Assembly (NCBI GenBank): GCA_002633005.1
Contig: NMRA01000589.1
Coordinates: 172,642 to 236,641 of the forward strand
Length of the DNA stretch: 64,000 nucleotides
Reading direction: 5' to 3'
Origin: Phoronis australis
Lineage: Eukaryota; Animalia; Phoronida
This document shows positions 15,628-43,102 of this stretch, piece after piece. The position numbers and the translations under genes were made by a program. The notes below the pieces were generated by a model. It was given only the letters and a program-made list of their open reading frames with translations, had not been told where the DNA came from and searched no databases. Positions within the stretch are counted from its first letter, which is position 1. Each line of letters begins with the position of its first letter.

Positions 15628-15699
15628 ATCGATGGCAATGTTTAAAAATAAACGTGTTTATGCTAAATGACAGAGTAAACAACCCCCTTGTTGGGACAA

Positions 15700-16470: not shown

Positions 16471-17009
16471 TTAGTATGTTTTGAACTGCACTCAGTGTTC
16501 ATTTATATGATTAGGTACGACGGTAAGCTATTTCACAGCACAAATGACGATGAGAAAAATTGAGTTTGCGCCCTTAGACAAAGTTAAATTTTGTTGATGG
16601 CCGCTGGTCTTAAGTTCAGCCTTGGCTTGCCGGCGAGGTCACGTGTAATGTCACTCATATATTTTATCATTAACCTTTATTAATTCACATCACAACATAG
16701 TATAGTTGAAAAACATCATGAAAGTGAATTTAAAATGTTTTTTTTTATTTTCAATTTCACCAAATCTTAAGGTCATCTGCAGTCGCTTGTGTCCCGCAAG
16801 CCTGTTCGTTCCACGTAAACCGTTGATCCGCATTTAGGTTTCCCAAGCTCTTCGAAAAACCATGTTGCAGCTTTCATTAGCGACGTGGGACTAAAATCAA
16901 ATAATGTACTTCTTGCTAAAATGGAGGACGATCGCAGTCTCCCGCGCCCTGGCATATCGCAACTTACCCATTGAGTGTCACACTTAAAGTAGTCACTTAT
17001 GAATTCATG

Positions 17010-17112
17010 TTTGTACTCGTATAATACATGAAAACAAATGTAACAGCAGTTTTCAAAACAGTTAGTGGCGTACCTGATCAAGGTCCAAAATTTCTTTTTC
17101 CATATAGTTTGA
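17010..17112. repeat. Interspersed repeat; second copy at ~61968-62055
   Basis: Shared TTTGTACTCGTATAATACA.GAAAACAA ... GTTAGTGGCGTACCTGATCAA..CCAAAATTTCTTTTTCCATATAGTTT. Confidence 0.75.
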
Positions 17113-20344: not shown

Positions 20345-23202
20345 ACCTGGAAACGTTAAGATTACCTGTTATTTTTAAAAGTTGCTTCTTAGCTCAAACG
20401 TTTGCAATTAGGCGCATGCACTTAATTCGGAAGTAGACATAACTTCACACATAAGTGCATAAATTTAAGCACGTACGTATCAGTTAATGCGCCAACATTT
20501 GAACACCGATATGTCCAAATATGGACCTTGCTTGTGTTTTTTACTGAACATTCATTACGAATTAGTTTTTGAGCAAAATGATTGTACCTCGGGCTCAGGA
20601 GGCTGGTTCTCGAAGAGTCTGTTGTCTTTTGGTTAAAATCAACCTGCAGACTACTTTGCCATTTCCACGAAATCAGGCTAAGGCTAAGCCAGTAAATCTG
20701 TGTTCAACTTGAAGCTGAGATTCAAATCCGTAATCTTCCCGGGAATAGACTCAAAGACAAAGCCAAAAAAAATCAACTTTTGGGTATAGACTAATGGAGA
20801 AATAGACAATAGGCTTGGATTTCCAAGAGTCAATTGCAATCAAGAACTATGCACGCTCTTTGTCTTCGGTAACCCGTATAAGTCTGTCTCAATCTGGGAG
20901 ACGGTTGAATGAAGAACTCTGAATGAATCGTTTTGTGGATTTCGAAGTGAACAGTACTTGTCTATGACTTTGAGGTTTCAAATTGTGGGACACTCATGTT
21001 AGAGGTCGATTCTTTTATAAACCAGCATTATGTTTCGTTAAAACAGTAGAGTTAGAAAATGGCAATTTTTCGAAAATTTTTGAATGACAAAACTGGCAAA
21101 GGTAGGACCGGCTGCAGTCTGGTTTTAAGTGACATTATCGACGAGAATTTCTTATTTGAGAACGGTGACAACGTGGATCGAAGTTGAAACTCTAGCAGGG
21201 CAGCCAAACACCCGGCTGGAAGATCTGAATCCCCCTTAGTATTTGGAAGTGTTTTTAAATCTATTTAATTCGATTAAGTCGTCGGCCTCGATTTCAGCGA
21301 ATGTCTGGCAGACAACAGCGAGAATGGCGATTTGTAATAAAATCACAAAAACGCAACAGATTTTATTGTTTACCAGTTGTCTGGTTAAAGCTAACTTAAT
21401 AACCTCAAAAATCTTTCTCAATCAACAATTGCGTTTTTGGGTTGTTAGAACGACAATGTCTCACGAATGCACATCATCCTGCAAGCGAAAACAATCTGCA
21501 TAGTAAATGTGAGTTCAACTAGGGCATTAAACTTTTAAGTTAAAACCATGCACGTACAAACTTGGGTGTCACTCTCTGCTTCGCTATGCTGGTAATGAAT
21601 ACTCTCTTTTCCACTCTACTGATCTACACAAAACAAAGCGTTCAGGTATATCGAAGATACCCAAAGGACTACATTGAGACATCTCGATACGGCTGAAATT
21701 GTAATACACATCCCGGACATTTCTAAATTCTACTCTATTCACACTATTCTCAAACCTAGAGACTCAAGGGTCAGTGGAATTGGACGGGTAGTCCATCTCA
21801 GAAACTCCTTTAAGCCAAATATTTACATATTAATTTACATATTTTAATATGTAAGAATTTGGCTTAAAGGAGTTAAATGTTTTTGCATGTAAACTGAAAT
21901 AAAACGCACGGATAGTATGACAATATACATTGGCAAGACGTTTCGAGCGGTCATTTCTTTGGTCATTTTCAGGATTAAAACATCCTTAGAAGAACGAGCT
22001 CGGGTATGTTTTAAACTCATGCTAGTCAGTGACGAGCACGTTCCGGAAACGGAATGCATTAACTACCGATTCACACAGTGTCGCTCATTCGATAAAATTC
22101 GTCATTTTCCGTACGACGTTGTAACGTACACAGATAAGTCGCTATACATTAAGCAGCAATTAACACGCTACGTCACACGGAAATGGACGAACTGTGTATC
22201 GAATGAGCGTATTCTTGTTGTAACGCCAAACACCGCAAAAGTACTTTGTGTAATTTCTCTATGAGCTGAACACGGCATCATTTTTGTTTATAAATCCATC
22301 ACATTCAAGCCGACATTTACTGTACAATATAGTCCACAAATTTGCCACTAGTTTCCCGACTGTACAAGATGTTCACCTTTTCTCACATCTTAGAAGTGGA
22401 AAAAGGAAGTTTGGCTTCACCTTTAGTGCAGTCTTCACCAGATTATAATTGCTGTTCTTATAGTTATACACCAATGCATTGAAAGAATTACAAAAACGCC
22501 TAACACGTTTGAACAAAGTTCGATTGATCGGAGAGTCAGTCATGATTTTGTAAAGTCATTACTCTGCGGAGTGAAAGGGTTTTTGTAAGGTATGACATAA
22601 CCACAAGCTGGTTCAAAACGACCAGTCACTAGATGTCAGTGCTTTCTTCATTCGCCACCGGATGGTACTTGATTTACTTTTTATAAAACTGTTATTTGCT
22701 TTCAGCTCATTAATTTCTAGACTTGCGCTTTGAAGAATCATAGAGAAAAATGGCGAAAATTCTCTTTTAATATTTTATACATTTAGACGATGGTTGACAC
22801 CAACGAATTTTTTATGCATCCACACAAACAGAATTGGTTGCATCACAGTCAATAAACATCCACATAAACGTATGTAGCTGCCTATCGCCATCAACTCCGT
22901 CTAGCGCCTGACGTCGACTTCTCCAACACTGTTAGTAGGGTTTTCACGAACACACAGGTGTTTTCCTTTTAACGACATCTCGGCGAATGCTGTCAATTTT
23001 CAGACGTTGCATCTCAATGGGTGCACGTCATTGTTGGGTCAACCAGCTAACAACATCTGATTGATTATTACAAAGGGAGTTACACTAGGTGGCCAAATTA
23101 AGACAACCTGTCTAACTGCATTACAAAAACAAATATAAGCACCTCTTACAGTAGGCCTACACCGTTTGCGCACATCGACGCTCAGCGTTACTTTTATTTT
23201 AG

Positions 23203-26200
23203 CCGTGCACAGTAATGAAGCAGACACCAGATGCTCAGAGGGCAAAGAAAAACTTCACTTCAATTTAGATGAAGACAGATGTGCTCAGCTCAAGTCCATA
23301 GCGAAGGCACTAGGATGTCATGTCATCGACGTTTTCGTGGCGTTTGTCTACGCAATTCTCGTACGTTACGAAGGAGCCGAAAAGTCGTCTTCTGTCGAAG
23401 TTGGCTTTGCAACTCCAAATGAAGATCAAACCTCAGAGACCACTCTATTCCTCTCAGACGAATTCCTGCAATTCACGGACATTCAGTTACCTACTGACAC
23501 ACAAGGGGATGTTGCTAGCTTAATACAGTCATTCAAGACCAGCTTGGGAAAAGTAGTCAACGCTGTCTCACCATACAAGACATCTTTGCCTAACATTCTT
23601 ATTGGTTTTAACTTCCCACGGGAATTTGAGAAGCATGTGGCGCTAGACAGGTTTGCAGTGCGGCTACAAGCAAACAGGTTTAAGAACAAAGACACAAACC
23701 TTGATACGTACAGATGCACGCTTGTATACAGTGGTGAAGGCAAAAGTGCTGGCCTCCTGAAAATGTTCGAAGGGCACCTCCTTACGCTTGTTCAAGAGGT
23801 CATTGTATCACGAGAAGTCGGCAAACAAATGAATCTCTTTAGCTTACCAATGCTAACTCCAAGCGAAAAGAGTTTTCAGGATCATTACAATGACACCAAC
23901 AGAAAGTATTCTGAAGGCAAATTACTGATGCATGAACTATTTGAGAAGAAGGTGAAGATGTCCCAGGACGCAGTTGCTGTTAAATGTGAAAACGAAAGTC
24001 TTACATATGCAGAGCTTGATCAACTCTCAGATAGTCTAGCTGAACAGATATTGTCAACGGCAGGCGACAACTTGAGCAATCGCGTGGTTGGCATAAGCGT
24101 TGACGCCTCAGTCCAAATGGTTGTTGGTCTCTATGCCATAATGAAGGCAGGATTGGCTTACGTACCTTTAGACCCAAGCTACCCCGAGGATCGTCTGAGC
24201 TATATGATTGAAAACTCCGAAGCGTCATTGATTCTTGCAAAGACAGACATGACAGACAAACTTAAGAAGTTTTCAGCGAACGTCTTGTGTTTAGATGATA
24301 TGCTCAACCAAGTAGAATTTGACCCAAACCACAACGTCATCAAGAGAAATAAGAAGGTTGACGTCAGACCAGACGACTTAGCTTACATCATCTACACATC
24401 AGGGTCAACGGGAAAACCCAAAGGGGTAATGATAAGCCACAGAAATGCAGTCAATACAATTCTGGACATAAACGACAGATACAACATTACTGCCAAAGAT
24501 AAGTTACTCCTTGTTGCATCTTTAAGTTTCGACTTATCGGTATATGACATATTTGGTATTTTAGCAGCTGGTGGGACCCTAGTCATCCCTGTCCCAGAAA
24601 TTCGCGGTGTCCCGGATCCCGCCTGTTGGATAAAAACTATGAAGCAAGAGAGCGTCACGTTCTGGGACTCTGCTCCAGCAGTATTAAGCCTTCTGGTAGA
24701 GTATCTTCACTCAGAGGGGGACGTCTTACCTCAATCATTACGTCTTGTAATACTAAGTGGTGATCGCATACCCCTAATGCTGCCTTCTCACTTGCAAGAA
24801 ATGGTGCCAAACGTACAGGTTATGAGCCAGGGGGGAGCAACCGAAGGTTCTATTTGGTCAATTTACTACCCAGTCAAAACAGTTAACCCTGCTTGGACAA
24901 CCATACCCTACGGCATGCCATTGACAAATCAGAAGTATTATGTTTTAGATGAGTTCCTGAACCCTGCACCTACCTTAGTGACTGGCGAGCTTTACATCGG
25001 TGGTCTCGGAGTAGCAATGGGATACATGAATAACGAAAAAGTCACCAGCTACCGTTTCCTCCCTAGTCCATTTAAAGACGGCGGACGCATTTACAAAACG
25101 GGAGACTTAGGTCGATTTCACCCTGAGGGGTACATCGAGTTCTGTGGTCGCATTGACAACCAAGTAAAGATCCGAGGATTTAGAGTCGAGCTATCGGAAA
25201 TTGAATCCGCCTTGATTAACCAAGACGGTGTGGACGATGCCCTAGTCATGAAGGTTCAGGAAAAGCTTGTTGCTTACGTCATACACGACCAACATGCTAA
25301 ACTAAACGCGACAGACCTTCAAAAGCATATTAGCGAAACCCTGCCAACATACATGGTGCCAGCATACATAGTTATCATGGATTCATTTCCGGTTACCGTG
25401 AACGGTAAAGTTAACCGAAAAAAATTACCTCCCGCGGAATCAACGAGCCACAGAACCGAAGGCACAGGACCACCAGACGAGACTGCCCAATCATCAGAGC
25501 TAAAACTTTCAAACAACGAACAAGCCATCGCATCTGTTTGGTGCGAACTACTGAACACCGACATCCAGTCAATAAAACCAAGATCGTCCTTCTATGAAGT
25601 TGGTGGAGATTCCATATCCGCCATGACTATAGTGACGCAGTTGAAAAAGAAAGGCTTGAGCTTGACTGTCCAACAACTTCTAAGTCAACCAACTCTAGAA
25701 CAATTGGCATTAGTAGCCAAACCCATCAAGAAGCGAGTGGGAACAAAACAACACGAAAGAGAGGCGTCATCACCAAACGTGGAACTGACTCCAGCACAGG
25801 TTTGGTTCTTTGAGCAGGAGTTTGACAACATCAATTTCTGGAACCAGTCTTTTCTCATGATACCAAAAGTTAGATTGGAAAAAGAAAAATTGTCAAATGC
25901 TGTCCATGGTCTTGTCTCAAAACACGAAATGCTGAGGTGTAAATTCACCAAAGATCATCTTGGAAAATGGAAACAGACAATAGGAAATGAAGTTTCCTTT
26001 GTTTTTGAAAATGAAGATATATCAATAGACTTACTTAACACTAATATTGACAAGCTTAGACGGTCACTTGACATTTCCAAAGGTATCCTTATTGCAGTTG
26101 GGCTATTTGAAATCGATGGAGAACAGAAAATCTTTGTCACTGTTCACCATCTTGTAGTTGATTTGGTATCGTGGCGCATAATTCTAGAAGACATCGAGTT

Positions 26201-29200
26201 TCTTTACACAGACTCCGCAACACAAGACACGACACTTTCATTTCAGCGATGGTCTTCACATCTTCAACAAAAAGCCATAAACTGTCGTAATATTAATATG
26301 GATGACAAGTTTTGTCTATTGCACTGCGACTTCGACAGCGGTATTGTCCCACGAGCTAGTTCCAGAAGCGTTCTCTCAACTAAGCTACCTCATGACATCA
26401 CTGCCCAACTGACGACCACTGCGAACGATGCTTTCAGAACCACTACCGTCGACCTCCTCTTGACGACACTGATGCTGTCGTACAACCACTGTCTTGGAAA
26501 ATCGGCCCTCCACATTGACGTGGAAGCTCATGGGCGTGAACCCTTAGATGCAGACATAGACATATCTCGTACACTCGGCTGGTTCATGACAATGTTTCCT
26601 CTAAAGCTTGAAGTCACACGAGAGCAATCGACAGAGGCAACACTTGAAAGCACAATTAAACGTACAAAAGAAGCGATCAGAAAAATTCCGCACAAAGGAA
26701 TTACATTCTGGTTATTGAAATATTTGAAGTCGCTCGACAGCATCAGCTTTCCATCGTCAGACGTCTTGTTCAACTACTACGGGAGGTTTGACCAGATACA
26801 AACAAGAAGTGATTTCTGGGACATGGATCCGAGTTATAGCTCTGGCGAAGATGAATTTGATGAAAGCGAAAAGCTAACTCATAAGCTAGTTGTTGAATGT
26901 TACATAAAAGATGAGCTTCTTCATCTTAAAATGTTCTACAGTACCGACTTCCACAAACCTAACACCATTCAAATTTGGCTACAGAAATGGAAAGAGTCGT
27001 TGCTAAAGACTGCTCGACACTGCGCACAAAATGGAGTGCAAGGATACACCCCATCAGACTTCCCGCTTTTGAGCCTGTCACAGGGACACTTGGACTATCT
27101 CTTGGCTACAAGATTAGCGCAGCTTGATCTGAAAGCCGAGCAGATTTCGGATATGTATCCCTGTACACCAATGCAAGAAGGTTTCTTGTTCAGTCTGTTA
27201 CAAGATCCGTCATCATATCTCATTCAACGGTCTTGCACGGTGAACGGTGATCTCGATCAAAATCAGCTTCACCAGTGTGTGGCAAAGGTCATCCAGCGAC
27301 ATGATGCACTGAGGACAAGGTTTTTCGTCGATAGACTCAATGGGTGCATGCAAATTGTTCGAAAAACACATGACACAACCTGGGCAGTCGAAGATTTGTC
27401 AAATGTCACGGAGTCTCAGGCGGAGGAAAGAGAGCAGCAGTATTTGAGTCAGGATCGCAAAAGAGGATTCAGCATGTCTGAGTCAATGATTCGATTCTGT
27501 CTCTTTGTCCTGACAAAGAGTAAACATCGACTCATTATGACCGTGCACCACAGTTTGTTAGACGGTATGTCCTGTTCCATTTTGTTGCAAGAAGTTGTCC
27601 AAGCCTGCAACAATTCGGCTTTACCGGAAGCGCCAAAATACAGAGAGTTTGTCCAAGAGGTTATGGTCTCGAGGCAGAGTGCCTACACATCAGAGGGATT
27701 TTGGAAGGAAGAGATGCAGGACCTCCCTTTCCTTGGGAACCTTCGCATGCTGTCCCCAGTCACACCTCTTCGAGGTCACGAAGTAATCCTGGAATCATTT
27801 GACGTAGTTCCAAACTTTTCAGCATACACTGAACAACACGAGATATCGCCTGCTGCGATACTGTGTGCTGCATGGGCGTTCATCATCAATAAGTACTCTT
27901 GTGATCCAAATGACGTCATATTTGGGCTCATAGTGTCTGGGCGAAGTTCATCAAATATCGACCAAATTAATAAGATGGTTGGTCTAACTATTAACACTCT
28001 CCCGATGCGGGTTAAAATTCAAGATCACCACGTCACCGAATGGGTAAAGTATGTACAACGAAAAATTGCATCCATTACAGCTCAAGAAAAATCGTTCACG
28101 ACTGATATTCAAAAGTGGTGTGGTCTAAACCCAGACGATAAGTTATTCGAAACCGCTATTTCTTACCAAACGGCCCACACAGAAGTTGACCAGACTCCAC
28201 ACGGCATTAGTATAACTGATGTTTATGACCACGAATATACAGAATATCCCCTGACTTTAGACATTTTAAATACGGGTACGTCTTTTCAAGTGAAAGCGAT
28301 TTACGATACCAAAATTATTGACGTTCTAGCACTGAAACAGATGTTGATGCAGTGGAAACAAGTCATCGGTGCCATAGTTAAGTCCGGCAATAGCTATAAA
28401 GTGTGCGATCTAAATATGCTCTCTAACGAAGAAAACACGATCGTTCGAGAATTCAATACTCCAAATGAATTCGACATAACCTTTGGTCATGTGAAAGGTG
28501 TTCATCAGCTGTTTGAAGACAAGATGAAGTTTTTACCAGCCAGTCATAAAGCTATTGAATCAAGACTCGGTTCTCTGACTTATGAGGAAGTCAACAATGC
28601 CGCAAATTTCATTGCTTCTCAACTGCGTGTCCTTGGCGTCAAGCGGGAGAGCAAGGTCGGCTTACTGCTCGATCGCAGTGAATCCATGCCAGTGTGCATG
28701 CTTGCAGTCTGGAAAGCAGGAGGAGCATTTGTTGCGATTGAAGACTCGCTTCCCAGCGACAGAATCAACTTCATCCTTCAAGACAGTGGATGCACAGTTG
28801 TTGTTAATGCTGCGAACATCCCGTTAGACGACATAGCAGGACGTTTGGCGCAAATCACAGTGAGCAGAAGCGATATTTGCGACTACGCTAGCCGTCATAG
28901 GGAAAACTTAGCGAGCTTAAACGCATGGCAAGACCTTGCATATGTGAGCTACACGTCAGGATCCACTGGACGGCCTAATGGGGTTTTAATTGAACACGGC
29001 GGGATAATTAATCTTTTGCTGTGTAAGCCTGGAGGACTGTTTCAAGTCTCGCAAAAGTCACGAGTCATGCAATTCTTTTCCGCTAGTTCTGACAAGGCTG
29101 TAGGTGAAATATTTGGAACACTTTGCCATGGCGGATGTCTTGTTATCGCCGATGAAAATTTCGCAGAAAGTCTTAAGTCTGTTGACACAGCTACACTTAT

Positions 29201-32200
29201 GCCATCAGGATTTGGAATGCTGGACTTTAACGATTATCCCAATCTTGAACTGATCGTTTCAACCAGCGAACCTTGTACCCAAGTGATGGTTAATTCTTGG
29301 GGGCGAGACCGAATTGTGGAAAATGCTTATGGGACAGCTGAGTGTAGCATTTTTACCAATGTTGGCCGCCTTTTGCCGCACAAAAGAATAACCGTAGGAA
29401 AGCCTTTGCCAAACACAAAGAGTTACGTCCTTGATAAAAATCTGAGCTTATTACCAGTGAACGTAACAGGACATCTTTACATCGGGGGAGTTGCCGTTGC
29501 ACGAGGTTACCACAATAGACCAGATTTAACTGACAGTGCCTTCATTGAAAATCCTTTCGACAATGGATACTTCTATAAGACAGGCGATTTAGCTAGGTGG
29601 CTGGACACGGGAGAGATCGAAATAATTGGTCGTCAAGACAGCCAGGTACACTTACGAGGAAAAAGAATTGAGTTGATGGAAATAAGATCTGCACTCGAAC
29701 AACTCCCAGAGGTAAAACAAGCACACGTTGTATTGCAAGACAAGCAGTATATAATTGCTTACGTGGTAGCGTCAGCTGAATGCGACATCATTGATAGGCT
29801 CAAAAGGCAACTGCCTAGTTTCATGGTGCCAACATCAGTTATTTCCGTGGATTTTCTCCCGTTGACATCGGGAAATAAGATTGATGACGCTGCTCTTCCC
29901 AAGTTCACTCCCAAGCCATCTCATGATGACTCTCGAACGCCACTCAATGACTTGGAATTTCTGACTTTGAAAGCATACAAAGAAGTTATAGATCCCAACT
30001 TCACTATGGACGACGATTTCTTCAGTCTCGGCGGTCATTCACTTCTCGCGATAACATTGAAAACTGTTTTGGTTGAGAGTCTTGGATATGAGATTTCTAT
30101 GACGGACATCATGCGATACACAACACCTGCAGAACTTGCAGATCAACTGGGTAGAAGGATGTTAGCTCCACGGAAACTCCAAACATCTACCAGACTTATT
30201 CCAAAATCCTGTCCATCGGATGAAGCTGTTATTAAAGAACGAACTTCCTTTCATCAAGAACAAATGTGCTTGTTGTACGAAGTGATACAGGACAGCCCAG
30301 TGTACAACGTGTCGCTCATTTTGACTTTCCGTGGTCAGCTGAACGTTGAGTCTTTGAAACAGTCACTCATCGCGGTAACTCAAAACCATCACTCATTCAG
30401 AACAGCTTTTGAAATTGCAGAAGACAAATTCGTGCAAGTAGTGAGACCGGTGAACGAGACAGCATTTGACTTTGAATACCATGAAGGTGAGCACAGCGAA
30501 GCCGAAACGAGAGAGATCATCTACACAGAGGCATCCAAACCGTTTAACTTGTATAAGCTTCCACTAGCAAGATTCCGATTGGTGGAACTCAATGCACAAG
30601 AACACAGAATGCTACTCTTGATGCATCATGCAGTAACAGACGGTGCTTCACTGAAGATCATTGTGGATGAAATGTCCGAACGTTACCACTGTTTGTCAGA
30701 AAATCTTAATTATAACGTACCTCCCCAAACCCTGGAATATATTGACTACAGCATCTGGGAGAGAAGTGTCCTAGAGACCGAAACCTTTGAAGCTCAACTT
30801 TCTTTCTGGAAACGCCAGTTGGAATACGCTCCTTCGTTACTGGATTTACCGTTGGACAGACCCCGCCCAGCAGTTCCGTCATACGACGGTGCGTCGGTGT
30901 TCTTTTCTATTCCAGAAAGTGTGACAAACAANTGTTAGCTCCACGGAAACTCCAAACATCTACCAGACTAATTCCAAAATCCTGTCCATCGGATGAAGCT
31001 GTTATTAAAGAACGAACTTCTTTTCATCAAGAACAAATGTGCTTGTTATACGAAGTGATACAGGACAGCCCAGTGTACAACGTGTCGCTCATTTTGACTT
31101 TCCGTGGTCAGCTGAACGTTGAGTCTTTGAAACAATCACTCATCGCGGTAACTCAAAACCATCACTCATTCAGAACAGCTTTTGAAATTGCAGAAGACAA
31201 ATTCGTGCAAGTAGTGAGACCGGTGAACGAGACAGCATTTGACTTTGAATACCATGAAGGTGAGCACAGCGAAGCTGAAGCGAGAGAGATCATCTACACA
31301 GAGGCATCCAAACCGTTTAACTTGTATAAGCTTCCACTAGCAAGATTCCGATTGGTGGAACTCAATGCACAAGAACACAGAATGCTACTCTTGATGCATC
31401 ATGCAGTAACAGACGGTGCTTCACTGAAGATCATTGTGGATGAAATGTCCGAACGTTACCACTGTTTGTCAGAAAATCTTAATTATAACGTACCTCCCCA
31501 AACCCTGGAATATATTGACTACAGCATCTGGGAGAGAAGTGTCCTAGAGACCGAAACCTTTGAAGCTCAACTTTCTTTCTGGAAACGCCAGTTGGAATAC
31601 GCTCCTTCGTTACTGGATTTACCGTTGGACAGACCCCGCCCAGCAGTTCCGTCATACGACGGTGCGTCGGTGTTCTTTTCTATTCCAGAAAGTGTGACAA
31701 ACAAGCTGATGAGCTTGACATATAAGTTCGGGGGAACGATGTTTACAGCACTTCTTACGGTATATGCACTCTTGATACGCATATACTGCCAAGCAGACGA
31801 CATTGCACTGGGAGCGTTTGTTTCCGGAAGACACAACCAAGGTACAGAGAATATCGTGGGTTATTTTGTGAACACCCTCCCTCTTAGAGTTAAGTTTAAC
31901 AAGAAACAAACGTTCAACGATATGCTCATTATGATTAAAGACCTTATGCTGGATGTTCTAAACAACCAGGACGTGCCTTTTCAAAAAATCTTAGAAGCAC
32001 TCAGCATCCCACGTGACACAGCCTACCACCCAATCATTCAAGCCGCTACGATCTTGCAAGAAGGACTAGCAAGCAGACAAGTTAGTAAAGGGTTGAACTT
32101 AAACGTTGACAGTTTCGAACAGTTCACAGCAAAATTTGATTTAAACTTGGAGTATTTACGACATCCGAATGGCCAGATTTCAGGGCAATTTGTTTACAAT

Positions 32201-32547
32201 ACTGACGTCTTTAACAAGTCCACTATTGAGCGGATGACTGATCACCTACTCTATTTGTTCGATTTGGTTACAAGAGACTGTGACACTCCAATGAACCATC
32301 TGTGCATGCTACCTCCCAAAGATTTGGAGCGCATAATGTCTTTCAACACGACTGGAGACTGTACGGACGTTCGCATCCACCGACAGTTTGAAATGAGGGC
32401 AGACGAGTCGCCAGAGGAGATCGCGGTCGAAGAAAAAAGGCGCCATATAACTTATGGTGGACTGAACAAAGCCGCAAATGACTTAGCACGTCAGCTGCGA
32501 TCACTTGAAGTGACCTTTGATGTACCAGTGGCCTTGCTGGGAGAAAG
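23203..32547 (+). CDS. NRPS giant exon (partial C, A1, T1, E1, C2, A2, T2, C3, start of A3)
   Basis: ORFs 23166-30938 and 31037-32551 form one frame once the duplicate is removed; acceptor TTTTATTTTAG|23203, donor AG|GTAAGA at 32548 (phase 2). Confidence 0.9.
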
Positions 32548-35500
32548 GTAAGAAATCATTTATTTTGGTAAAATTTAACGTCCCAGTGACTTACAGGAGT
32601 TTTCCGCAGATAAGCCCACCCGATGAAACGCTCATGGGCGTTTATTTGGTGTTACAACTGGTATCAAGTGTCTAGATAGTGGGCCGTTTATTCGGAAGAT
32701 TTCCTCTTAAGAGCCCACAATGAGGTCTGGAGGTGCACATTAATCTTCTTGTCCCACTGGGCAGATATTGCAAAAATTCATGGGCTGTTACACAATTAAC
32801 GTTGTTAACCCGCATTCACAACAATCCTTTTAGGACTACCAATCCACCCAGAAAGGCTGTTTCACTTACAAAAAATACGTACAGCGCTTCCTTTCGTCAT
32901 TTGCGTAGCCGAAACTATGACTTTCCATTTACACGCCCCCTTTTCCGAATAAACGCCAGGGCGTTTATTTGGCGTTACTAAAACGCCTGAAATTTTTCAC
33001 TTTCCGAATACACCCCATGGCTTATCCCCGGAAATATCGGTATTATGGAAAATCTTGTTTTAACATTGGTAAAACATCACCACTCGGATGCTTGTGACAT
33101 GTGGCAAAACTCTTCGCTTTTTCATGTTTTAGGACGTCCTTGCCAAATGCCAACTCGAACTAATCACTATGGAAATATATACATCAGTTACCTACTTTTT
33201 GTTTTAGAAACCTTGAGCTCATCGCTGCTATCCTGGGTACATTAAAAGCAGACGGAGCCTTTGTTTGCATAGACGTATCCTTGCCCCAAAATCGCATCGA
33301 CTACATGCTCGAAGATTCGGAATGTCACGTTGTCGTAACCTCGCAACGCATCCTTAATTCCGGAATCCTAAAGCATTTTGGGGGACATGTCATATGCCTA
33401 GACATAGAGAAATGCACAACAAAATACCCTATTCGTCTCAGCTCTGATAAAGACAGAGAAGTGCAAGCCCAGAGCAAAGTGACGTCCAGTAATATGGCAT
33501 ACATAGTATACACATCGGGGACAACCGGGAAGCCGAAGGGTGTTATGGTAACACACAAAGGCGTAGAAAATCTTATCCCAAAAATGAACAAGGCGCTAGG
33601 TGTAAGGAAGGGAAGGAAAATAACACAGTTCTTCAACATAATGTTTGATGGCGCGTATCAAGAAATATTCATGGCGCTCTCCAGCGGAGCTACTCTTGTA
33701 CTTCGTGAGACGGACTACCGCAACACGTTGAAGTCGGTGGACTTTTCTATGATGACGCCAACTGTACTTGCATCTTTGGATCCAAGAGACTTCCCAAACC
33801 TAAAAACTGTGGCTGTTCTTGGCGAAATATTGCCCGAATCTGTGGTCGCGTGCTGGGAGGATCACGTAGACTTATTTAATGAATATGGCCCGTGCGAGGT
33901 GACAATCAACTGTACTATTGGTAAGGTGAATAACAGATCGCAAGTGACAGCTGGAAAGCCAATAGAAAATTGCACGACCTTTGTGCTTGGAGACGACATG
34001 AACCTGGTTCCAATTGGCGTGAAAGGAACAATTTTCATTAGCGGACTCGGTGTTGCAAGAGGATACCTCAACAGACCGGACTTGACCCTTCAGAAATTTG
34101 TAGATAATCCATTCGGTGAGGGTAAACTCTACAACTCCGGAGACGTTGGATGTTGGACCGACGACGGTGAACTCGTGGTCAATGGACGAAAAGACAGACA
34201 GGTAAAGTTCAAACGGTGATCATAAGATGGGCTGTAATTTTTTCACAATGATGTCTTGCTCGCAATCCGATCTTTCCCAAGAAGTTTCGAGATATTCATT
34301 GTCAGTTTGCCGTATGACTGTTGATAGGACAATAAACGGATAGGACGTGAATTTTAACGAGCTTTTATGATACTATGCAACAAATAAAACTGGTATGTTA
34401 CATAACTTACGTTCAATGTGTATAACTGAGACATAGCTTCAATACTACGACAAGAATTTGTCATGCTGCTTTGCATTCTTTATTATTCATTCCCGTGTCA
34501 ACTCAATCAAAAATTGATAAACCCATGGGTTTCAATGGTCGTTCTAGGTCAAATTGCGAGGATTTCGAGTAGAGCTCGGGGAAGTGGAACACGCGCTTGC
34601 TACGTTGGAGGGCATTGGGAACGCTGCTGTGTTGATGAAAAAGGACATTTTAGTAGGATATGTCACGCCCGATATCGGTAAGTGTGTCAATCCGTTTACT
34701 TAGACCGGTTTCCGGTATGAAATTGATCCTAACTTTACCTAGATGAAGATTGATTTCTGGGTTATGGAAAAGCTGGCAGTAAATTATTGTTTGCGAACGT
34801 GCTCGGCACATAACGTGACTGACACACTGTGACAATCCAAATTATCGAGTCTGATCCCAAGCAATAATGAACTGTGAGTTCTTCTACAACCCAGGAATTT
34901 TGTATCCGTCAGTGTCATAAACTAAAAGTTGTTTACGGAAGGCGAGTTAATAGCCGCTGTAAGAAGCCACTGCTAATGGTCACCTCGATGTCAACAAATT
35001 TTTAATTGAAACTAAATGAGCCTTATTTCGCTATCTGAGTAAAATCATTTTTGTTTTATATCTCGCTGAAGCTGCAGTGTGTCTACAATCTCTTCTCAAA
35101 ATCTTGTCTTCACAGGCACGACGAAAGCCCAAGAGCTTAAACAGAAACTCGAAGAAACTCTTCCGCGGTATATGATACCCACAGTGATCGTTCCTCTGGC
35201 AAAATTCCCAATGTCAACAGCCGAAAAGGTAAATTATCGCGCATTGCCCGAACCGAACTTAGTGCAACAGGAAACTGCCACAACAAAAGAAAAAATGCTC
35301 ATACAAATTTGGAGCGAAGTTCTTGGAATCAGCCCATCAAAGATCAAACCAACAGATTCCTTCTTTTATTTGGGTGGAGATTCAATTTCTGCCATGAAAG
35401 TTTTCACTTTGGCAAGAAAACAAGACTTACGATTCACAGTACAACAAATTTTCCAAACGCGGAATTTGTCTCAACTCGCAGCTGTAGCCAAATTTGAAAA

Positions 35501-38500
35501 GTCATCTATAGAGGCAGATCAAGTCGAGATTTCTGGACTCATACCTTTGACACCAATTCAAGAGTGGTTCATAGGCTTGGACATGATGAACCTCAACCAT
35601 TTCAACCAGTCTGCTCTCCTCAAGCCTCATAACATACTTGATGCTCAAGCACTTCAGAAAAGCATTGACAAACTTGTGTCGCATCATGACATGCTTAGAG
35701 TAAAGTTCCATTTCAGAGACGACGGTACAGTCACGCAAGAAATCAAATCTTCAAATGATTGCATAAAACCAAAACTATTACACAAAGCTGTATCGCAAGA
35801 CCAGGTGAATGACACACTGCACCAAATTCAATCATCTTTGAGCATAACAGATGGCCCTGTTGCAGCTTTCTGCCTGCTAGACGTGAAGAGTCAAGGGCAG
35901 TTGCTCTTCATAACTGTTCATCACGTCGCAATTGACTTGGTTTCATGGCAAATCCTTCTTGAAGACCTTGAGCTGTTGTACTTAGGCAAGAAGTTACAAC
36001 CTAAAACAACGTCGTTCAAAGCATGGTCAGAGGGTCTCTCGAATGAGTATCGTTTAACTATGTCAACAGATACTTGGCCCAAATGGCAGAATACAGCATC
36101 AAAAACTTTTGATCACTTCCTGTACGGGAACAAGATTAACGAGACTGGGGAAAACCGCACACTGAAACTGGAAAGTATTTCACTTCATGCTGAAACAACG
36201 GGCAAACTGCTTTCTCTTCAGGGAACCCAGGGGAGCGATTTAACTTCCGTTAACGACGTGTTATTGACTGCCTTAATTGTAGCATATCACAGATGTACTG
36301 CGATGACATCTCTTGCTGTAGAACAAGAATGGTTTGGAAGGGAACCTTGGAATGAGAAATATGATGTGTCCAGAACAGTAGGTTGGTTTACCGTCATGTA
36401 CCCTGTTACAATGACAATTGACAAAAATGGAGAATTGGAAGATCATCTTGAAAAGACAAAATCAATTCTGCGACGAGTTCCACAAGGCGGGCTTCCATTC
36501 GGTGTCAATAAATACCTGAATAAAGACGAAGACTACAGGTTCCACCAAAGTTGTGACGTTCTCTTCAACTACCACGGTAGTGCAACACAATTTTCCCAAG
36601 ACCTGACGCTTTGGGACGTATGCATGGATGGGGAATTCGTCTTCACAAACCGAGGCAAAGATGAGAAGTTATCCCATAGTCTTGTAATTGAGTGTTCCGT
36701 GCAAGACGAGTGTCTGAAGTCAATGTTCATTTATATGCACGATCAGAGAAGTCCGTTCATAAAAGAATTGGCTTCAACCTGGCTCGAAATCGTCAATTCC
36801 ATTATGTCAACTTGCAAAGTAATGCAGGTTGATAAAGGCATAGATCCATCCAATGATACCCTTCCTGCGCTTAATACAACTCAAATCCTAACAGACAACG
36901 ACACCGAAGCCATTTACGAATGTACCCCACTTCAAGAAGGTTTCATTCTTTCACTGCTTCAAGATAAATCTTCATATCTTGTCCAAATGGCAATGGATAT
37001 TGAAGGAAAGTTGGATGTACCACGGTTCATAGACGCTTGGAATGTAGTCATTCGCCGCCACCAGTCTCTAAGAACCTCGTTTGCAATCGAAACAAAGGAC
37101 CACATGTTGAGGCAAAACGTCAGAAGACAAGCAAACATTCAGTGGACAAAAGATCACTGGACGGATCCACTGCAGCAAGAGAACGAGTATGTGATCAAAG
37201 ACAGAAACGTAGGATTTGAAATGAAGGAGGTAATGATGCGCTTTGCGTTAATGAAACAACCTGATGACACATACAGGTTTATCTGGACGACCCATCACTC
37301 CCTGATTGATGGTTGGTCAACTCAGCTCGTGTTAAGAGAGGTTCTCTTAGCCTATCATCAACAGGAACTGCCTCCTCCACCACCTCCATTCCAAACTTTT
37401 GTCGAGTATTGTAAATCGCGAAATACTTCAGCCGCAAAGACTTTCTGGGGTGAATTCTTTGAAAACTTACATTCAAAGTTTTTAATTACCGGAAAGGAAA
37501 CCGTAAGACCCAAAGAAGTCTCATCGTCAAATGTGAAGAATTTCACCAAACAACTTGAAGTACGCACTGATAACCTCTGGCGTTTTGCACGTGAAAACAG
37601 TCTAACAATTTCCAGTGTCGTTTTTGGTGCATGGTCTATCGTGTTAGATAGATTTTGTAGCAATGGAGGGAACGATTGTGTGTTCGGCGTGGTACTGGCT
37701 TCCAGGAGTGCAGAAGTTGAAGGAATAGAAGACATGGTAGGTCTCTTGATTAACACATTGCCACTTCGAATCACATTTCCAACGAGTGCAGGTATTTCGA
37801 TGCTTGACTGGTTGCATTCAGTACAGTCCCGCCAAAGCAGTATAATGGAGTACGACTACTGCAACTTAGCAGATGTCGTACGATGGAGTGGCCTACCAAG
37901 AAACCAGAATATCATGGATTCTTTGGTAATTTTTGAAAATTATCCTCCGATGCACGACGTGGAAAACGGCGAAATAGCGCTCACTAATCTCCAAGCATAC
38001 GAGAAAGTACAGTTTCCCATAACAATAGAGGTTGCCGCGGACTCCGACTATGTTAGTGTCACGTGCATGCATGATACCAGCCGGATAAGCGATGATCTAG
38101 CTAGCGAGATGCTAGATTACATGAACAGTGCAATCAAGGAGCTGCTCAACTATGACACAGAGAAACCGATAGTTGAAATGGACATCGTCAAGGCGAGACC
38201 TGGGAGAGATGCCAAAGGAGTACGTTTGGACATGTGGAACGGGGTGGGATCCACAAGCCAACTTAAATGTTATATCAGGGATCAAAAGGGACGCATGACG
38301 CCACCAGGTATTGCCGGAAAACTAGAGTTCAGCACTAGTAATGGCGAGGCATGTCAAACGAACGTTGTGGCTCTGCTACATAACAACGGCGATATAAGCG
38401 TTTTATGCAAGAAAGGCAATTACGAACTTGAGGGTGCAGTTAAGTATGTTACGTTTGAAACTGAAGAGGGCGCGATAGCACTTACTCAGAAACCAGTTTC

Positions 38501-41500
38501 TTTTGAGGTTTTGAAAGAATTTCAAAAAAAGCACCTCAAGTGTATTCCAGTTCACAGCATTGAGTTTGTTCACGAAGAACTCATCAATCTCGTAACAGAT
38601 GAGGTAACGATCGATCAAGTGAGCACAATACAGGAAACACAGAGAGAAAGATTCGTTGACGAGTTCCAGATGACTTATTCCCAGAAACTGCTAAGAGATA
38701 TTTGGAGCCAACTTTTAGAAGTACCGCGGGATGACATCAAACTTGACCACTCGTTCTTTGACTTAGGTGGGACATCTATAAAGGCAATTAGCATGACTTC
38801 TTTGGCAGAAAAGAAAGGGCTGCATTTGAATTTAAATGACATCTTGGAGTATCAAACTCTCAGAGGCATTTCAGCTGCTGCTAAGACACAGACAGGTGAG
38901 TTTTTCAAGCAAAATATTTCGTGTTTTCGAACAAAATTTAAAATTAGTATGTCTTTTAATAAGTATGCTAAAGAAAACTAACATTTCAGGTATTTTACAG
39001 GCATAAGTTTTTCATAATTGTTAGAATTTATTCAGGAATAACAAACCATTTTTTCTGCAAGAAATTAAACGGCCAACATAATGTGCCAGAGCCTTGGTAG
39101 GCGAAACAGTTGGCCAACTCTGAGAGTAATTACAGTTTCGTTACTCTCAGGCCATCGTAGTTCGTGTCCACCAGAAACTTTATCAGAAGCATTTCAACCG
39201 ATTCTTGGAAGTTTTAGGTAGCTACTTCAGGTTCCTAAATCTCTACAGTCATTTATACCAAACCAATTAAAACAAATGAACGTGAGAGGGGACTGTCCAC
39301 GAAATGCAGGCGCTAGTAACAGACTTCGGGGTTATATGTGTTTGAATTCCACGAGGACCAGGCAAGTCTGGTAGCAGAAAATTAATGGAAATGTACACTG
39401 CACGCTCTTAAAAACCATTTAGAAAATTCTACATTTTCTACACTATTTCGTTGAACTGATATCTTCCGCCAAAAGTATTGCAAAGGCATAATTATTTAAT
39501 TTTGGTCCTTCAGTTTATCTGTCTTTTTAGAATTTCCAGCTTCGGTGATATCAAAACTTGACATTTCGTGATGAGGTCATTGCTTACAAAGTCGCTTGTT
39601 TCCTTGTTTTTAAAGTGACATGCTTGCTTCGCGTGGCACAAGTATGACCGACTGAAGTATTTTTACTTATTAACAAATTTTAACTTCTTACAGACAATGC
39701 AAACGACATTCTGGTGCGTCTGAATGAAGGAGAGAAGGACCGTATACCAATCGTTTGCGTCCACGCAAGCGATGGTGGCACGTCATCCTACGCGTACCTA
39801 GCAGGTAAATATTTCGCGTGTCCATTGTTGTTATTACATGTACTGCACGTGCAGTGCAGGTGACTGCGTACGAGTCCTCTAACTACAGTAGTAACCAAAC
39901 TGAATTGGAAAAAATACTGTTTGCCATCATGACGGCTACTTACCATCAAAAATGATTACTTACCACCAAGGCGGCAAACTTCTAATTACAGAATGGCTTA
40001 TAAGCCACCATATTAACTTTCCTGTTAACTGCTCTCCATTCTCGGTCACAAATGAGAGAAAATTTTTCTAACGACGAATTTGACTTCGGCCCAGCCATCA
40101 TGACGGGGAATCCCGGGTCATTTTTTCTGAAACACTTCTGGCTCGCGCTGTGCATAGATCTCTTCGTCGGAGGTATAAGCGCAAGAGGATTAAAGAAACT
40201 TTATCGGCATTATTACAGGGAAACTCATTTTGGGAATTGTTGTTCGGTGGGATAAACTTCTTAATTTTATTACTTTTGACCAGCTTCCCGTCCAGTAACG
40301 CTAGGACGTTGCTAAAAACCGACTTCGCGAGATTACGTGACATGATATTGTCGTGTATTGAGAACATGTGACTTTGGCTTGATTTTAGCTAGGTCCCAGC
40401 GTTACTGAACGCACGCCAGAACTATCGAAGAACATCTATCGTCTTTTTGTGATTTTATTACAAATTGCCAATTTTCGACATTTCCTGCCAGGAATTCGCC
40501 GAAACCAAGGCATGTACGCTTAACAACTCTGATATTTATCGAGGGGCCTTAGCTCTGTTAGCAGACCATAGAACTGTGATGGGGGGGTTGTATGCAGGTT
40601 TGATTGATCGCCGAGAGTGATCTCACAAAATTATTTTTCTCGCCAATAATGTCCCTTCATACCGCCAACCAGACCTTGCTTCACTCAAAGCGAAAAAACG
40701 AACGAATACGCGAATACTACTACATGTATGGAACGGCCGGCCACAAATTCGTGAAACTGTGAAAAACGGAACACAGCGAATGATATGCACCACCCAACCA
40801 GTAAATAAAACAAGCCCTCGGTGAGGGTTTGCAGAAAACGACGTTTTTACAGAACCTGAGCTTATACCAGGTTCGCTAGTAGGCTCACAGCTGTTGTTTA
40901 TGCAAAAATGAGCTGAACTCCACCAGCCTGTATACATAGGTGTTGGTTCATTCTACATATAGTAACAGAAAAGCAGGCGGCAAATCTCATACTTTAGTAG
41001 CAAAATAAGAGCGAAATCACGAGAAGCTGAGTTCATAACCAACGCATTCAAAGCCCTTAGAAAGGATACACAGAAGGTTGTTGGATGTTTTATGTTAGCT
41101 AGACCGCCATCCGACGGTAATACTCGGAACTAGAGAAAATATTAGATAAACACTATGTCGAGCAGCTACAGAACGGAACACGTTTCACGCACTTTCCACC
41201 AGAAAAAAGGCACACGCAGTTCTGTTGTACAAAAGATTTGAAATTATCCATTGGTCATGAAAGAGCATTCAACCAAACACTCGCCTATACTCTTGAGGAA
41301 ACTTAATGACGTACTATCACGTGTTCATTTTGCAGGCAACTTAAACCGACATCCATTATACGCATTCCGCTTAAAAGAGGATACACCATTCGAGTCGATT
41401 GAACAACTTTCTGCTTTGTACGTGGAAAGAATGGTCTCACTCGACTTCTTCGCCAACGTGCAACCATACTTACTGGTGGGGTATTCAACAGGAGGCGCAG

Positions 41501-41976
41501 TGGCGTTCGAGATGGCGCTTCAGCTTGAGCTAAAGCAATACCCACCCGCCAGACTGGTTCTGCTCGACGGCACACCAGAGTTTATGCGGAGAACTTATCA
41601 CGGCATCAGTAGTAAAAGCGAAGACGAAATTGTCGATGTAAAGAATTTCTTGACAAAAACGTGGGACGAGAAAGGACTGGACAAATCTGACCTTCAGAGA
41701 GCGTTGACCAACTTCAACAACACCGTCTCTCAGTACGCTAGCTACTCGCCGACTGAATTGTACCACGGCAGCACCGTTCTTGTTCAGCCAGCTAGCAATG
41801 AAAATAATGAGTTGTTGATGGCGGCTATCTCGCAGATGCCAAGTGAAGATTATGGGCTACAGGCGCTGTGTACCCAACCTGTGAAGATCGTAGTGGTGGA
41901 GGGAGATCACTACAGCATGATGCGAGATGCAGACGGAGTGATATCTCATACAGTTGTGGAAGGACTATCTCAGTAG
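23203..41976 (+). CDS. Spliced multimodular nonribosomal peptide synthetase, ~4,740 aa: C(partial)-A1-T1-E1-C2-A2-T2-C3-A3-T3-E2-C4-A(vestigial)-T4-TE
   Basis: Three YTSG(S/T)TG.P.GV adenylation motifs; four carrier serines (GGDSI, GGHSL, GGDSI, GGTSI); C-domain HHSLLDG, HHAVTDG, HHSLIDG; two E domains (HH...DLVSW, EAHGRE/EWFGRE, RT.GWF, FNY.G); TE with GYSTGG, LLDG, GDHY. Exons 23203-32547 (less the 773-bp duplicate), 33208-34201, 34548-34677, 35116-38895, 39694-39804, 41336-41976 join in frame. True start codon not resolved. Confidence 0.95.
30160..31704 (+). repeat. 772-bp direct duplication around a single N (30932); probable unmerged haplotype overlap
   Basis: 30160-30931 matches 30933-31704 apart from six substitutions that I could find. 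Confidence 0.9.
33208..34201 (+). CDS. NRPS exon (A3 core)
   Basis: Acceptor TTTTGTTTTAG; restores ER|NLELIAAILGTLKADGAFVCID; donor CAG|GTAAAG (phase 0). Confidence 0.92.
34548..34677 (+). CDS. NRPS exon (A3 motif A8 region)
   Basis: VKLRGFRVELGEVEHAL...LVGYVTPDI; TAG acceptor, GTAAGT donor (phase 1). Not shown in this frame by the ORF track. Confidence 0.92.
35116..38895 (+). CDS. NRPS exon (end of A3, T3, E2, C4, vestigial A, T4)
   Basis: Acceptor TCTTCACAG, donor GTGAGT (phase 1/1); within ORF 35079-38981. Confidence 0.92.
39694..39804 (+). CDS. NRPS exon (thioesterase N-terminus)
   Basis: DNANDILVRLNEGEKDRIPIVCVHASDGGTSSYAYLA; TTCTTACAG acceptor, GTAAAT donor (phase 1/1). Confidence 0.9.
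41336..41976 (+). CDS. NRPS last exon (thioesterase catalytic core)
   Basis: TTTTGCAG acceptor; PYLLVGYSTGGAVAFEMA, LVLLDG, EGDHYSMM; stop TAG at 41974-41976. Confidence 0.92.
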
Positions 41977-42069
41977 CCATGAAGTCCTAAATGATGGAGC
42001 CCAGATGGAGAATTTCACGCACAAAACATACAGGGCAGACGATATGAGATAATTAACTAATAATTGTTC

Positions 42070-42075
42070 AATAAA
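42070..42075 (+). promoter_or_regulatory. Candidate polyadenylation signal of the NRPS gene
   Basis: AATAAA ~95 nt after the stop, with a second at ~42151; the region is AT-rich, so chance occurrence is possible. Confidence 0.5.
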
Positions 42076-43102
42076 AAAATCCAATTATATGTTATAATTG
42101 TTGTTTCACGGATAACAGGTTGATATGATTTCGTTGTAACGATATTAAGAAATAAAAACATTTATCAAAGGATCAAAGGACTTCAATGGAGATGACTTCG
42201 GTGCATAGGACGGGCCAATCTAAGGTTAAAAATCCATTATTTGCAGGAATAGTGTGACGCAAAACGTTCAAATTAAATAAAACTCTGTTCAAATAATGTT
42301 TCGCTGTTTATACGCGAATGGTCGCCACTGCGACATTGTCCCAAACAATTACGAATAAATTTTCTGCCAGAGTTTACTCATCATCAAAAAAGCGTTTCAT
42401 ATTTTCATTCTTGTTCATATATAACATCTCAACTTTTTAAAAATTATTAACAACTTCAGTGAGCGTACTTTTGGCAATTAAATGACTGTTCCAATGAGAC
42501 AAGTCCATGAAACTATTGAAGTATGAAAATACAGTTTGCCCGTGCGATCTAATACAATTCATCCTGCAACAGGACATGTGACCACGGCAGTAGCCAACTT
42601 TAAATTTAAGTGAGACAAATTCATGTACCAGTTACTCTGGTTAGACGTCCTGTTTACGCGTTATGCACGCGACAGATGCCTTTAATTGACGAACTTTTTC
42701 ACGCAAAAAGCAAACCTCGCAAATGGGGAGGGAGCCTAAAGAGGGCGACACTGCATTGGTTTATAAAAGTGCAGCTGGGAGATTAATAAATCCGGGAAAG
42801 ACTCTCCAATGGTAAGTAATCATACGGGTTATTTATGCGCAAAATGGAAACCATGTCGAATCTGCCAGGAACATCCTTGCAAACGCTTGAATCCGGATTT
42901 TCGCCATAGCCACGCGCCAGTCTTCCCCAAGCTCCAAAATATTCCTACCCTGTGTCATAAAAGCACATTTTGTTCTCGTTTGTGCCAGTCAGGTTCATTT
43001 TGAAGCAACCAAAAAGGGGAAAGCGCGTGCGCGTGTCATTTTTTTTCCAAAAATCTTATTTCATAAGCCTCACAAAGAAATTACTCAAATTTAGTTTAGT
43101 TT

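Follow-up and report, generated by a model that had tools for sequence, protein, structure and literature searches.

An intron-containing, multimodular nonribosomal peptide synthetase gene with two epimerisation domains in the genome of the phoronid Phoronis australis

Introduction

Can an animal genome carry a multimodular nonribosomal peptide synthetase (NRPS) of the kind found in bacteria and fungi and, if so, what would it make and where might it have come from? These questions are raised by a gene at positions 23139-41976 (+ strand) of a 64,000-nucleotide stretch of Phoronis australis DNA (GenBank assembly GCA_002633005.1, contig NMRA01000589.1, positions 172,642 to 236,641), hereafter the window, to which all coordinates refer. 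A preliminary description of the sequence had presented the gene as a horizontally acquired assembly line, split by five introns and producing an undescribed animal peptide. Here we report its gene model, its condensation (C), adenylation (A), carrier (T), epimerisation (E) and thioesterase (TE) domains, a distant orthologue and its relationships. On balance, the gene encodes a multimodular enzyme (three A, two E and four carrier domains) that probably builds a short peptide alternating between D and L residues, the first of which is likely D-cysteine or another residue that is small and polar like it.

Results and discussion

Gene model

Joining seven segments (23203-30931, 31705-32547, 33208-34201, 34548-34677, 35116-38895, 39694-39804 and 41336-41976) produces a single frame of 4,741 amino acids with one terminal stop. 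Introns 1-5 (660, 346, 438, 798 and 1,531 bp) are all of the GT-AG type, with the 5' ends GTAAG, GTAAA, GTAAG, GTGAG and GTAAA and 3' ends consisting of a pyrimidine-rich tract and AG, and the spliced protein aligns without gaps to a single-open reading frame (ORF) orthologue, P0016, over the junctions of introns 1-3 (residues 2856, 3188 and 3231). The five frame-preserving introns first described in a protein of about 4,740 residues therefore stand, and a 773-bp duplication and a missing start exon (discussed below) are added to them.

Along the + strand, the first part of the first coding exon (23203-30931) encodes C*, A1, T1, E1, C2, A2, T2 and the start of C3, and its continuation (31705-32547) encodes the rest of C3, of the LCL clade, and the start of A3. 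Intron 1 (32548-33207, phase 2), which carries a high-copy host repeat, is followed by an exon for the A3 core with the pocket DGQMALEINK (33208-34201), and intron 2 (34202-34547, phase 0), which falls between DRQ and VKLRG and contains an 11-bp indel variant, by an exon for the A3 subdomain (34548-34677). Intron 3 (34678-35115, phase 1) precedes the exon for the end of A3, T3 (GGDS), E3, C4 (DCL, HHSLIDG), a spacer and T4 (GGTS) (35116-38895). Intron 4 (38896-39693, phase 1) separates this from the start of the thioesterase (39694-39804), and intron 5 (39805-41335, phase 1) from the last exon (41336-41976), which holds the thioesterase motifs GYSTGG, LLDG and GDH and ends in the stop codon TAG. 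An inverted-repeat element resembling a miniature inverted-repeat transposable element (MITE) lies in intron 5 at about 40277-40427, in agreement with the earlier report of a MITE-family element inside an intron.

The two parts of the first exon are separated by an assembly artefact (30932-31704) consisting of one N and a 772-bp second-haplotype copy of 30160-30931. This segment recurs at 30933-31704 with 99.2% identity and 6 single-nucleotide polymorphisms. A contig from DNA run X1 carries copy-1 alleles at positions 31135, 31276 and 31280 of copy 2, has 105 extra upstream letters and extends to 32629; the repeat is therefore a two-haplotype overlap left by scaffolding. A sixth intron and a genuine tandem repeat were both considered, and are ruled out by the N-flanked 99.2% repeat together with the X1 contig. 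Once the repeat is removed, the true first coding exon measures at least 8.5 kb.

Three RNA runs (X5, X6 and X7; 18-19% of each read, library strand uncalibrated) bear on expression. RNA depth is about 1x in X5 and X6, and in X5 averages 1.22x over 15 exon bins versus 0.10x over 4 intron bins. In exon bins first mates lie mainly on the + strand (13.5:4.8 and 12.3:1.9), which speaks against plain DNA carry-over and would denote antisense RNA if the libraries are of the commonest type. Low-level transcription of the gene is likely, while its splicing is supported by homology rather than by reads. In X5 and X6, RNA depth of 0.5-2.4x persists for about 1 kb beyond the stop codon (42000-43000), possibly a long 3' untranslated region.

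Host encoding

Read mapping, which covered 30933-43000, ties the gene to repeats of the surrounding genome. DNA word depth reaches 446 in the intron 1 bin versus about 5.6 alongside, and 779 in the intron 5 bin versus about 5 alongside; the intron 1 repeat also matches 63217-63326, and that of intron 5 matches elsewhere in the window. DNA contigs link exons to repeats at about 80-130x local depth and run from the last exon's end into the 3' flank. N runs occur in the window only at 1745-2309, 30932, 56396 and 59624-60216. Both halves of the gene run on, without a gap, into flanks that are LINE-like (long interspersed nuclear element) or bear THAP sequences or repeats, or into an upstream intron-rich gene. 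Allelic versions of the gene occur in RNA runs from a second study and other samples, and its coding GC content is 44%, with neighbouring exons at 44-49%. That the NRPS gene is host-encoded is well supported, as the initial placement within an animal genome had proposed.

The gene is also under purifying selection, since 12 of the 16 exonic differences classed (6 from the duplication and 10 from 40 of the 89 variant rows) are silent and the other 4 conservative, and the five indels among those listed variants (again 40 of 89 rows) are all intronic. In the spacer between C4 and T4, four of five variants are silent.

Domain architecture

The domain order is C*-A1-T1-E1-C2-A2-T2-C3-A3-T3-E3-C4-spacer-T4-TE, in which Pfam recovers 3 A domains, 6 condensation-family stretches (counted on non-duplicated sequence), 4 T domains and 1 TE. 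In the tree of C and E domains, where class labels come from our own profiles and domain context, E1 and E3 fall within the E clade at 100, upholding the two epimerisation domains originally proposed, while C2 and C4 group with DCL domains that follow an E domain and C3 groups with LCL domains. The HHxxxDG motifs and classes of these C domains agree with the chirality expected upstream, C2 and C4 each following an E domain.

C* (23205-23924), scored separately from the tree, corresponds to the C-terminal lobe of a condensation domain: it has an Atlas score of 0.96, with 22 of 30 matches in the Condensation set, a Pfam E value of 0.016 and a profile score of 13.4 bits versus a best of 3.1 in 200 shuffles. 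As it comprises this lobe only, without HHxxxDG, it is predicted to be non-catalytic. It is followed by A1 (23925-25439), a cysteine-clade adenylation domain with the pocket DLYDISQIWK (DLYNLSLIWK in the orthologue), by T1 and E1 (25512-27029; GGDS, then the epimerase motifs HHLVVD, EAHGRE and RTLGWF) and by C2, A2 and T2 (27150-30149; DCL clade, pocket DKGTVTAIFK and GGHS, respectively), all on the + strand.

Carrier domains read GGDS ahead of an E domain and GGHS ahead of a C domain, a rule that T1-T3 (GGDS, GGHS, GGDS) fit. T4 reads GGTS, and all four carriers retain the phosphopantetheine serine and match the PP-binding family in Pfam. The three A domains carry core motifs, with A2 retaining the Asp, the A7 motif and the Lys and deviating in A3, A4 and A8. 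The thioesterase holds a Ser-Asp-His set (GYSTGG, LLDG, GDH; Pfam Thioesterase E 3.3e-17), and all the C, E, T, TE and A domains have their catalytic motifs (His, Asp, Ser and Lys).

The 158-residue spacer between C4 and T4 (38208-38681, + strand) had been interpreted as a relic A domain (A*), a reading that is unproven. The spacer scores 5.2 bits against an A-domain profile, a value matched by 1 of 300 shuffles, its resemblance to the A6 region is by eye, Pfam returns no match, and its AlphaFold model has a pLDDT of 33 and is unusable; relic or not, the spacer cannot be an active A domain. The remainder of the order first given is recovered by Pfam, tree and motifs. Strict colinearity, as in a type A NRPS, fails here: module 4 has no A domain in either the window gene or P0016.

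A distant orthologue and the predicted substrates

P0016, obtained from the ENA, is a 4,451-residue protein encoded as a single ORF on a 2.42-Mb contig, with the same domain order as far as T4; its cluster mate P0391 differs at 20 residues and lies on a 3.17-Mb contig. It shares 36.6% identity with the window protein over 4,324 aligned positions and, among 390 collected proteins, is the best match for A1-A3, both E domains, C2-C4, T1, T2 and T4, though not for T3 or the TE. Trees also pair the two proteins by position (A1 100/100; A2 96/83; E1, E3, C2, C3 and C4 82-100), while the placement of A3 reaches a five-row clade and not the pair itself. Because the orthologue is colinear at 36.6% identity, the domain arrangement is old, and the introns were either gained in the phoronid lineage or lost in that of P0016. 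P0016 lacks the spacer, keeps the GGTS of T4 and ends about 45 residues beyond it. A read-through of P0016 into an intron at the TE start was considered and set aside as a G-K resemblance that the TE profile does not support, 55 of 500 shuffles scoring as well as or better than the tail. No close relative of P0016 was found in GTDB genomes (best segment 36%), and no family member among the matches listed from JGI metagenomes (best 37%). A eukaryotic source for P0016 is plausible.

Pocket residues were read from alignment, and a control reading of GrsB reproduced its known Pro, Val, Orn and Leu codes. The pockets of P0016 (A1 DLYNLSLIWK, A2 DAFCLCGICK, A3 DGLCFGMICK) suggest a product that likely starts with cysteine, followed by hydrophobic residues: its A1 pocket is identical to that of a match named yersiniabactin synthetase and one position away from that of a match named pyochelin synthetase. 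The window enzyme (DLYDISQIWK, DKGTVTAIFK and DGQMALEINK) probably makes a different product, since its pockets are shifted. It is speculative that the Lys in the A2 pocket and the Glu in the A3 pocket bind acidic and basic side chains, respectively.

Predicted assembly and role

The enzyme would work much like a bacterial or fungal multimodular NRPS, whose complement of domains it has, without being strictly colinear. The frame, the order and classes of its domains, the orthology with P0016 and the host setting are established here; its splicing, its substrates, the loading of T4, the product, its role and the route of acquisition are what we infer. Priming of T1-T4 would fall to a phosphopantetheinyl transferase of the host. 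A1 would load cysteine or a cysteine-like residue, and E1 would invert it. C2, a DCL domain, would then join the inverted residue to residue 2 from A2, C3, an LCL domain, would add residue 3 from A3, and E3 would invert that residue, before C4, a DCL domain with an intact HHxxxDG, adds a fourth residue on T4. Since neither orthologue has a working A domain in module 4 and C4 and T4 are intact in both, we favour the loading of T4 by an A domain from elsewhere in the same enzyme. There are precedents for such use in malformin synthetase MlfA, which has fewer A domains than residues, including D-Cys, and for which the authors hypothesise iterative use (PMC6298953, in the part available), and in nemamide NRPS-1, where one A domain supplies two D-Asn (PMC8363725, likewise in part). 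The predicted product is D-Cys*-L-X-D-Y-L-Z, released by the TE as a linear acid or a ring, its D-L-D pattern following from the E domains after modules 1 and 3 and the DCL domains downstream.

The role would most likely be defence, whether antimicrobial or against predators. This is suggested by analogy alone, with the bdelloid NRPSs (PMC11258130) and with a deterrent of another phoronid, Phoronopsis harmeri, that has resisted isolation, reportedly because it is volatile or reacts with air (the available text of PMC13232333). If P0016 comes from another animal lineage, the two proteins could represent an old animal family of assembly lines, conserved and equipped with epimerases, whose peptide begins with D-cysteine, a suggestion we offer tentatively; were it true, the thiol peptide could be the phoronid predator deterrent that resisted isolation.

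Mosaic ancestry

Trees were inferred with FastTree or IQ-TREE (LG+G4) on subsets of 107 of 741 A rows, 124 of 857 C/E rows, 32 A rows and 159, then 43, TE rows. They are unrooted as to direction, long-branch joins are flagged in the C/E and TE trees, and the A sample is mostly bacterial and without fungal epipolythiodioxopiperazine (ETP)-type and ACV synthetase rows. A1 nests in a bacterial clade (100/100) whose members bear a cysteine-type pocket, and the top named matches are all bacterial for A1 and mostly bacterial for E1. A2 and A3 of the window protein and P0016 join ORX93212.1 of the fungus Basidiobolus at 100/99. An A3-to-A5 spacing of 118-119 residues occurs in 7 of 667 A domains, once one 22-residue mis-match is set aside, all of them from the window protein, P0016 and ORX93212.1. 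Fungal ETP-type A domains also have a short A3-to-A5 segment. C3 likewise groups with ORX93212.1 (93), the DCL domains group with fungal ones (99, with long branches flagged) and the E domains group weakly with fungal ones (82).

The top named matches of the TE are mostly animal fatty acid synthase (FAS) thioesterases at 32-36% identity, and it falls in a 99/93 group with animal FAS-type and Basidiobolus TEs, outside a 97/92 core of 15 FAS-type rows. The TE of ORX93212.1 itself groups with animal FAS-type TEs, away from bacterial NRPS TEs. Capture of the TE from the host FAS is not claimed, since this Basidiobolus NRPS TE sits in the same group. According to the parts of PMC7466969 available, Basidiobolus NRPSs have been proposed as bacterial transfers, with gene 338397 among the candidates, and ORX93211.1, the accession adjoining ORX93212.1, has been tied hypothetically to cyclopentapeptides.

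The ancestry suggested by these comparisons is an old mosaic, with a bacterial-type A1 and with A2, A3, C, E and TE domains nearer to fungal sequences. The gene may have been assembled from a bacterial-type cysteine module and fungal-type modules in, or before, some eukaryote, through transfer via a microbial eukaryote, from an unsampled bacterial lineage or by patchy inheritance; assigning a direction calls for a root and wider sampling. The horizontal acquisition originally proposed thus stays plausible, tempered by the mosaic ancestry and by the colinear orthologue, which shows that the arrangement is old.

Alternative explanations

A D/L-alternating product from an active enzyme is our preferred reading, and several observations weigh against it. 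No in-frame ATG occurs before residue 187 of the joined frame, which suggests that a short start exon 5' of the good putative acceptor at 23202 is missing from the model. A scan of 18001-23150 for phase-1 donors preceded by an ATG turned up two candidates, neither of them convincing, and no start exon, and an N-terminal C-domain lobe was not found in any of the six frames of 9001-23300. Exons are not enriched in X6 (0.95x in exon versus 0.82x in intron bins), X7 has no reads outside repeats, and no splice junction reached the listing threshold in X5-X7. The window A1 pocket departs from the cysteine code at three of its 10 positions, neither the A2 nor the A3 pocket corresponds to a code in the comparison set, A2 has drifted motifs (TGRPNG, SDKA, TSEP, ELMEI), no tailoring genes were seen among the window ORFs scanned, and the small exonic sample (16 differences, from 40 of 89 rows) weakens the selection argument. 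Part of this would be expected of a decaying gene, an old NRPS with module 2 and its 5' end eroding and little or no peptide made: A2 has drifted relative to the canonical A2 of P0016, E3 carries EWFGRE where EGHGRE is expected, and transcripts at about 1x without listed junctions accompany the absent start. We nevertheless regard decay as unlikely, given 14.2 kb of open frame, no exonic indel among the five listed, the predominance of silent variants even in the spacer and the presence of catalytic motifs in all domain types. Less doubtful, though still clearly less favoured, is the possibility that C4-T4 is a capping or release unit, by which a D-L-D tripeptide is condensed onto a unit supplied in trans (by another ligase, or as a free amine) or cyclised. 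Neither protein has an A domain in module 4, P0016 stops soon after T4 with a tail that is no demonstrable TE start, and trans-acting partners are documented in the nemamide pathway (PMC8363725, as far as available). Against capping, C4 lies in the tree among the DCL domains of ordinary elongation modules, paired with sequences of the C2 type, the T4 serine motif is kept in both orthologues, and a complete TE follows in the window gene. The assembly of a four-residue product thus remains our preferred reading.

Two further alternatives concern the origin of the DNA rather than the function of the enzyme. That fungal or protist DNA was scaffolded into the animal assembly would fit the fungal grouping of several domains and the DNA word depth over most exons (3.9-6.1), which lies below that of the 3' flank (8.3-9.8) and thereby counts against host encoding. 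We consider it very improbable: the TE exon, at 9.5, is at flank level, and the lower depth elsewhere can be inferred to reflect one haplotype per contig, while the intronic repeats at 446x and 779x that recur in the window, the gap-free joins of both gene halves to their flanks and the allelic versions in RNA of a second study and other samples all argue for a host locus. A single recent bacterial transfer of the whole gene, which bears on origin only, would agree with the bacterial matches of A1 and E1 and the bacterial clade around A1, with a very long first exon and only five introns in 14.2 kb, and with the listing of the Basidiobolus relative (gene 338397) as a candidate bacterial transfer (PMC7466969, in part). 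It does not fit the grouping of A2, A3, C3 and TE with a Basidiobolus NRPS, including the 100/99 clade of A2 and A3 with its shared short A segment and the 99/93 TE group. Bacterial matches reach no more than 43-52% identity in A1 and 27-34% in E1, with no close P0016 relative in GTDB or among the JGI matches listed; we judge it improbable. A bacterial origin through an older transfer, from a lineage not yet sampled, is possible.

Genomic neighbourhood

Among the neighbours, first described as metazoan-type, Pfam identifies a THAP domain (E 4.6e-7), an IS1595/Merlin-type DDE transposase (E 5.7e-6) and a reverse transcriptase (E 6.5e-5), whereas the CUB match is weak (E 0.0035). The segments 114-954 and 3259-4323 (+ strand) hold CUB-like exons and a final exon, in which a membrane span is predicted, with an acidic tail on the cytoplasmic side. 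On the - strand, three exon-like ORFs (6011-6265, 8127-8369 and 9324-9485), with no adjoining catalytic amylase exons seen, resemble the domain that extends the C-terminus of certain invertebrate alpha-amylases; they have no Pfam or NCBIfam match and Atlas leads below 0.9, and are possibly a stand-alone domain gene. No isopenicillin N synthase was found among the window ORFs scanned.

Repeats are plentiful on both sides of the gene. A 305-bp palindromic element at 9995-10299, 93% self-complementary, is probably a young MITE, and a more decayed palindromic element occupies 5011-5305. A near-perfect 39-bp tandem array runs from 54695 to 56395, up to the single N at 56396, and 53454-54738 recurs at 56397-56603 and 57419-58334 (93-94%) around IS1595/Merlin-type transposase fragments at 56871-57508. 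The THAP domain (59363-59620) is interrupted by the N gap at 59624-60216.

Comparison with known systems

antiSMASH regions carry flanks of 20 kb by default. Counted from the first start codon of its first ORF (TTG, 23166) to the stop at 38981, and with 40 kb added for the flanks, the present locus measures 55,816 bp. This is exactly the length of row 212 in Table S4 of Suring et al. 2023 (PMC10531068), where seven P. australis NRPS regions are tabulated and called a riddle, and it is the sole match in 7 rows x 19 starts x 5 ends x 3 offsets. The locus is therefore very probably row 212, an identification resting on one length coincidence, and is unlikely to be new as such: the accessible text of that paper already mentions several phoronid NRPSs, and contamination was judged 'unlikely' for row 212. 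The accessible text and Table S4, figures aside, are silent on its domain order, introns, substrates and relatives. What is new here is the full gene model, the architecture, the domain-for-domain orthologue P0016 and the mosaic ancestry. No further paper on Phoronis and NRPSs was found, and no described product turned up in literature searches that covered subscription journals thinly, in line with the undescribed product first proposed; nor did the literature examined describe the architecture or product of an animal NRPS with two stand-alone E domains.

ACV synthetase, which has the order A-T-C-A-T-C-A-T-E-TE with one E domain at its end, resembles the window gene in its three A domains, epimerisation and terminal TE. 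It is also found in animals, occurring in fungi, bacteria, springtails and Plectus (PMC10531068, as far as available). The window gene differs from it in having one E domain behind module 1 and another behind module 3, an extra C-T and a cysteine-type A domain in first position; its order, A-T-E-C-A-T-C-A-T-E-C-T-TE, is unlike that of ACV synthetase or Ebony, as the preliminary description had stated. The closest named relative of A2 and A3 (38-40%), C3 and the TE is ORX93212.1 of Basidiobolus meristosporus (P0265, C-A-T-TE), which shares the shortened A segment but is a single module of 1,283 residues from a fungal host, without an E domain or a cysteine-clade A domain.

Other NRPSs are likewise encoded by animals, among them nemamide NRPS-1, the bdelloid NRP-PKS, mollusc FmtATR, Ebony and Sm-NRPS, here compared by description only. 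Nemamide NRPS-1 incorporates D-Asn without an identified epimerising domain and needs a polyketide synthase (PMC8363725), and FmtATR (PMC11869996), Ebony and Sm-NRPS are single-module enzymes, whereas the window gene is multimodular with canonical C domains; the bdelloid NRPS C domains form a clade of their own, according to the available part of PMC11258130. No named member of the echinoderm-mollusc or bdelloid NRPS clades appeared among our homologue-search matches. A functional analogue is malformin synthetase MlfA of Aspergillus (available part of PMC6298953), which makes a D-Cys peptide with fewer modules than residues and with E and DL-joining domains, and which differs in its cyclising C domain and neighbouring disulfide enzymes. 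With a full gene model, the exact cysteine code of P0016 and a module 4 that lacks an A domain in both proteins, the product can be predicted well enough to be sought by liquid chromatography-mass spectrometry. The origin of such lines becomes testable too: animals may have acquired them from fungi, protists or unsampled bacteria, or may have inherited them from a shared ancestor.

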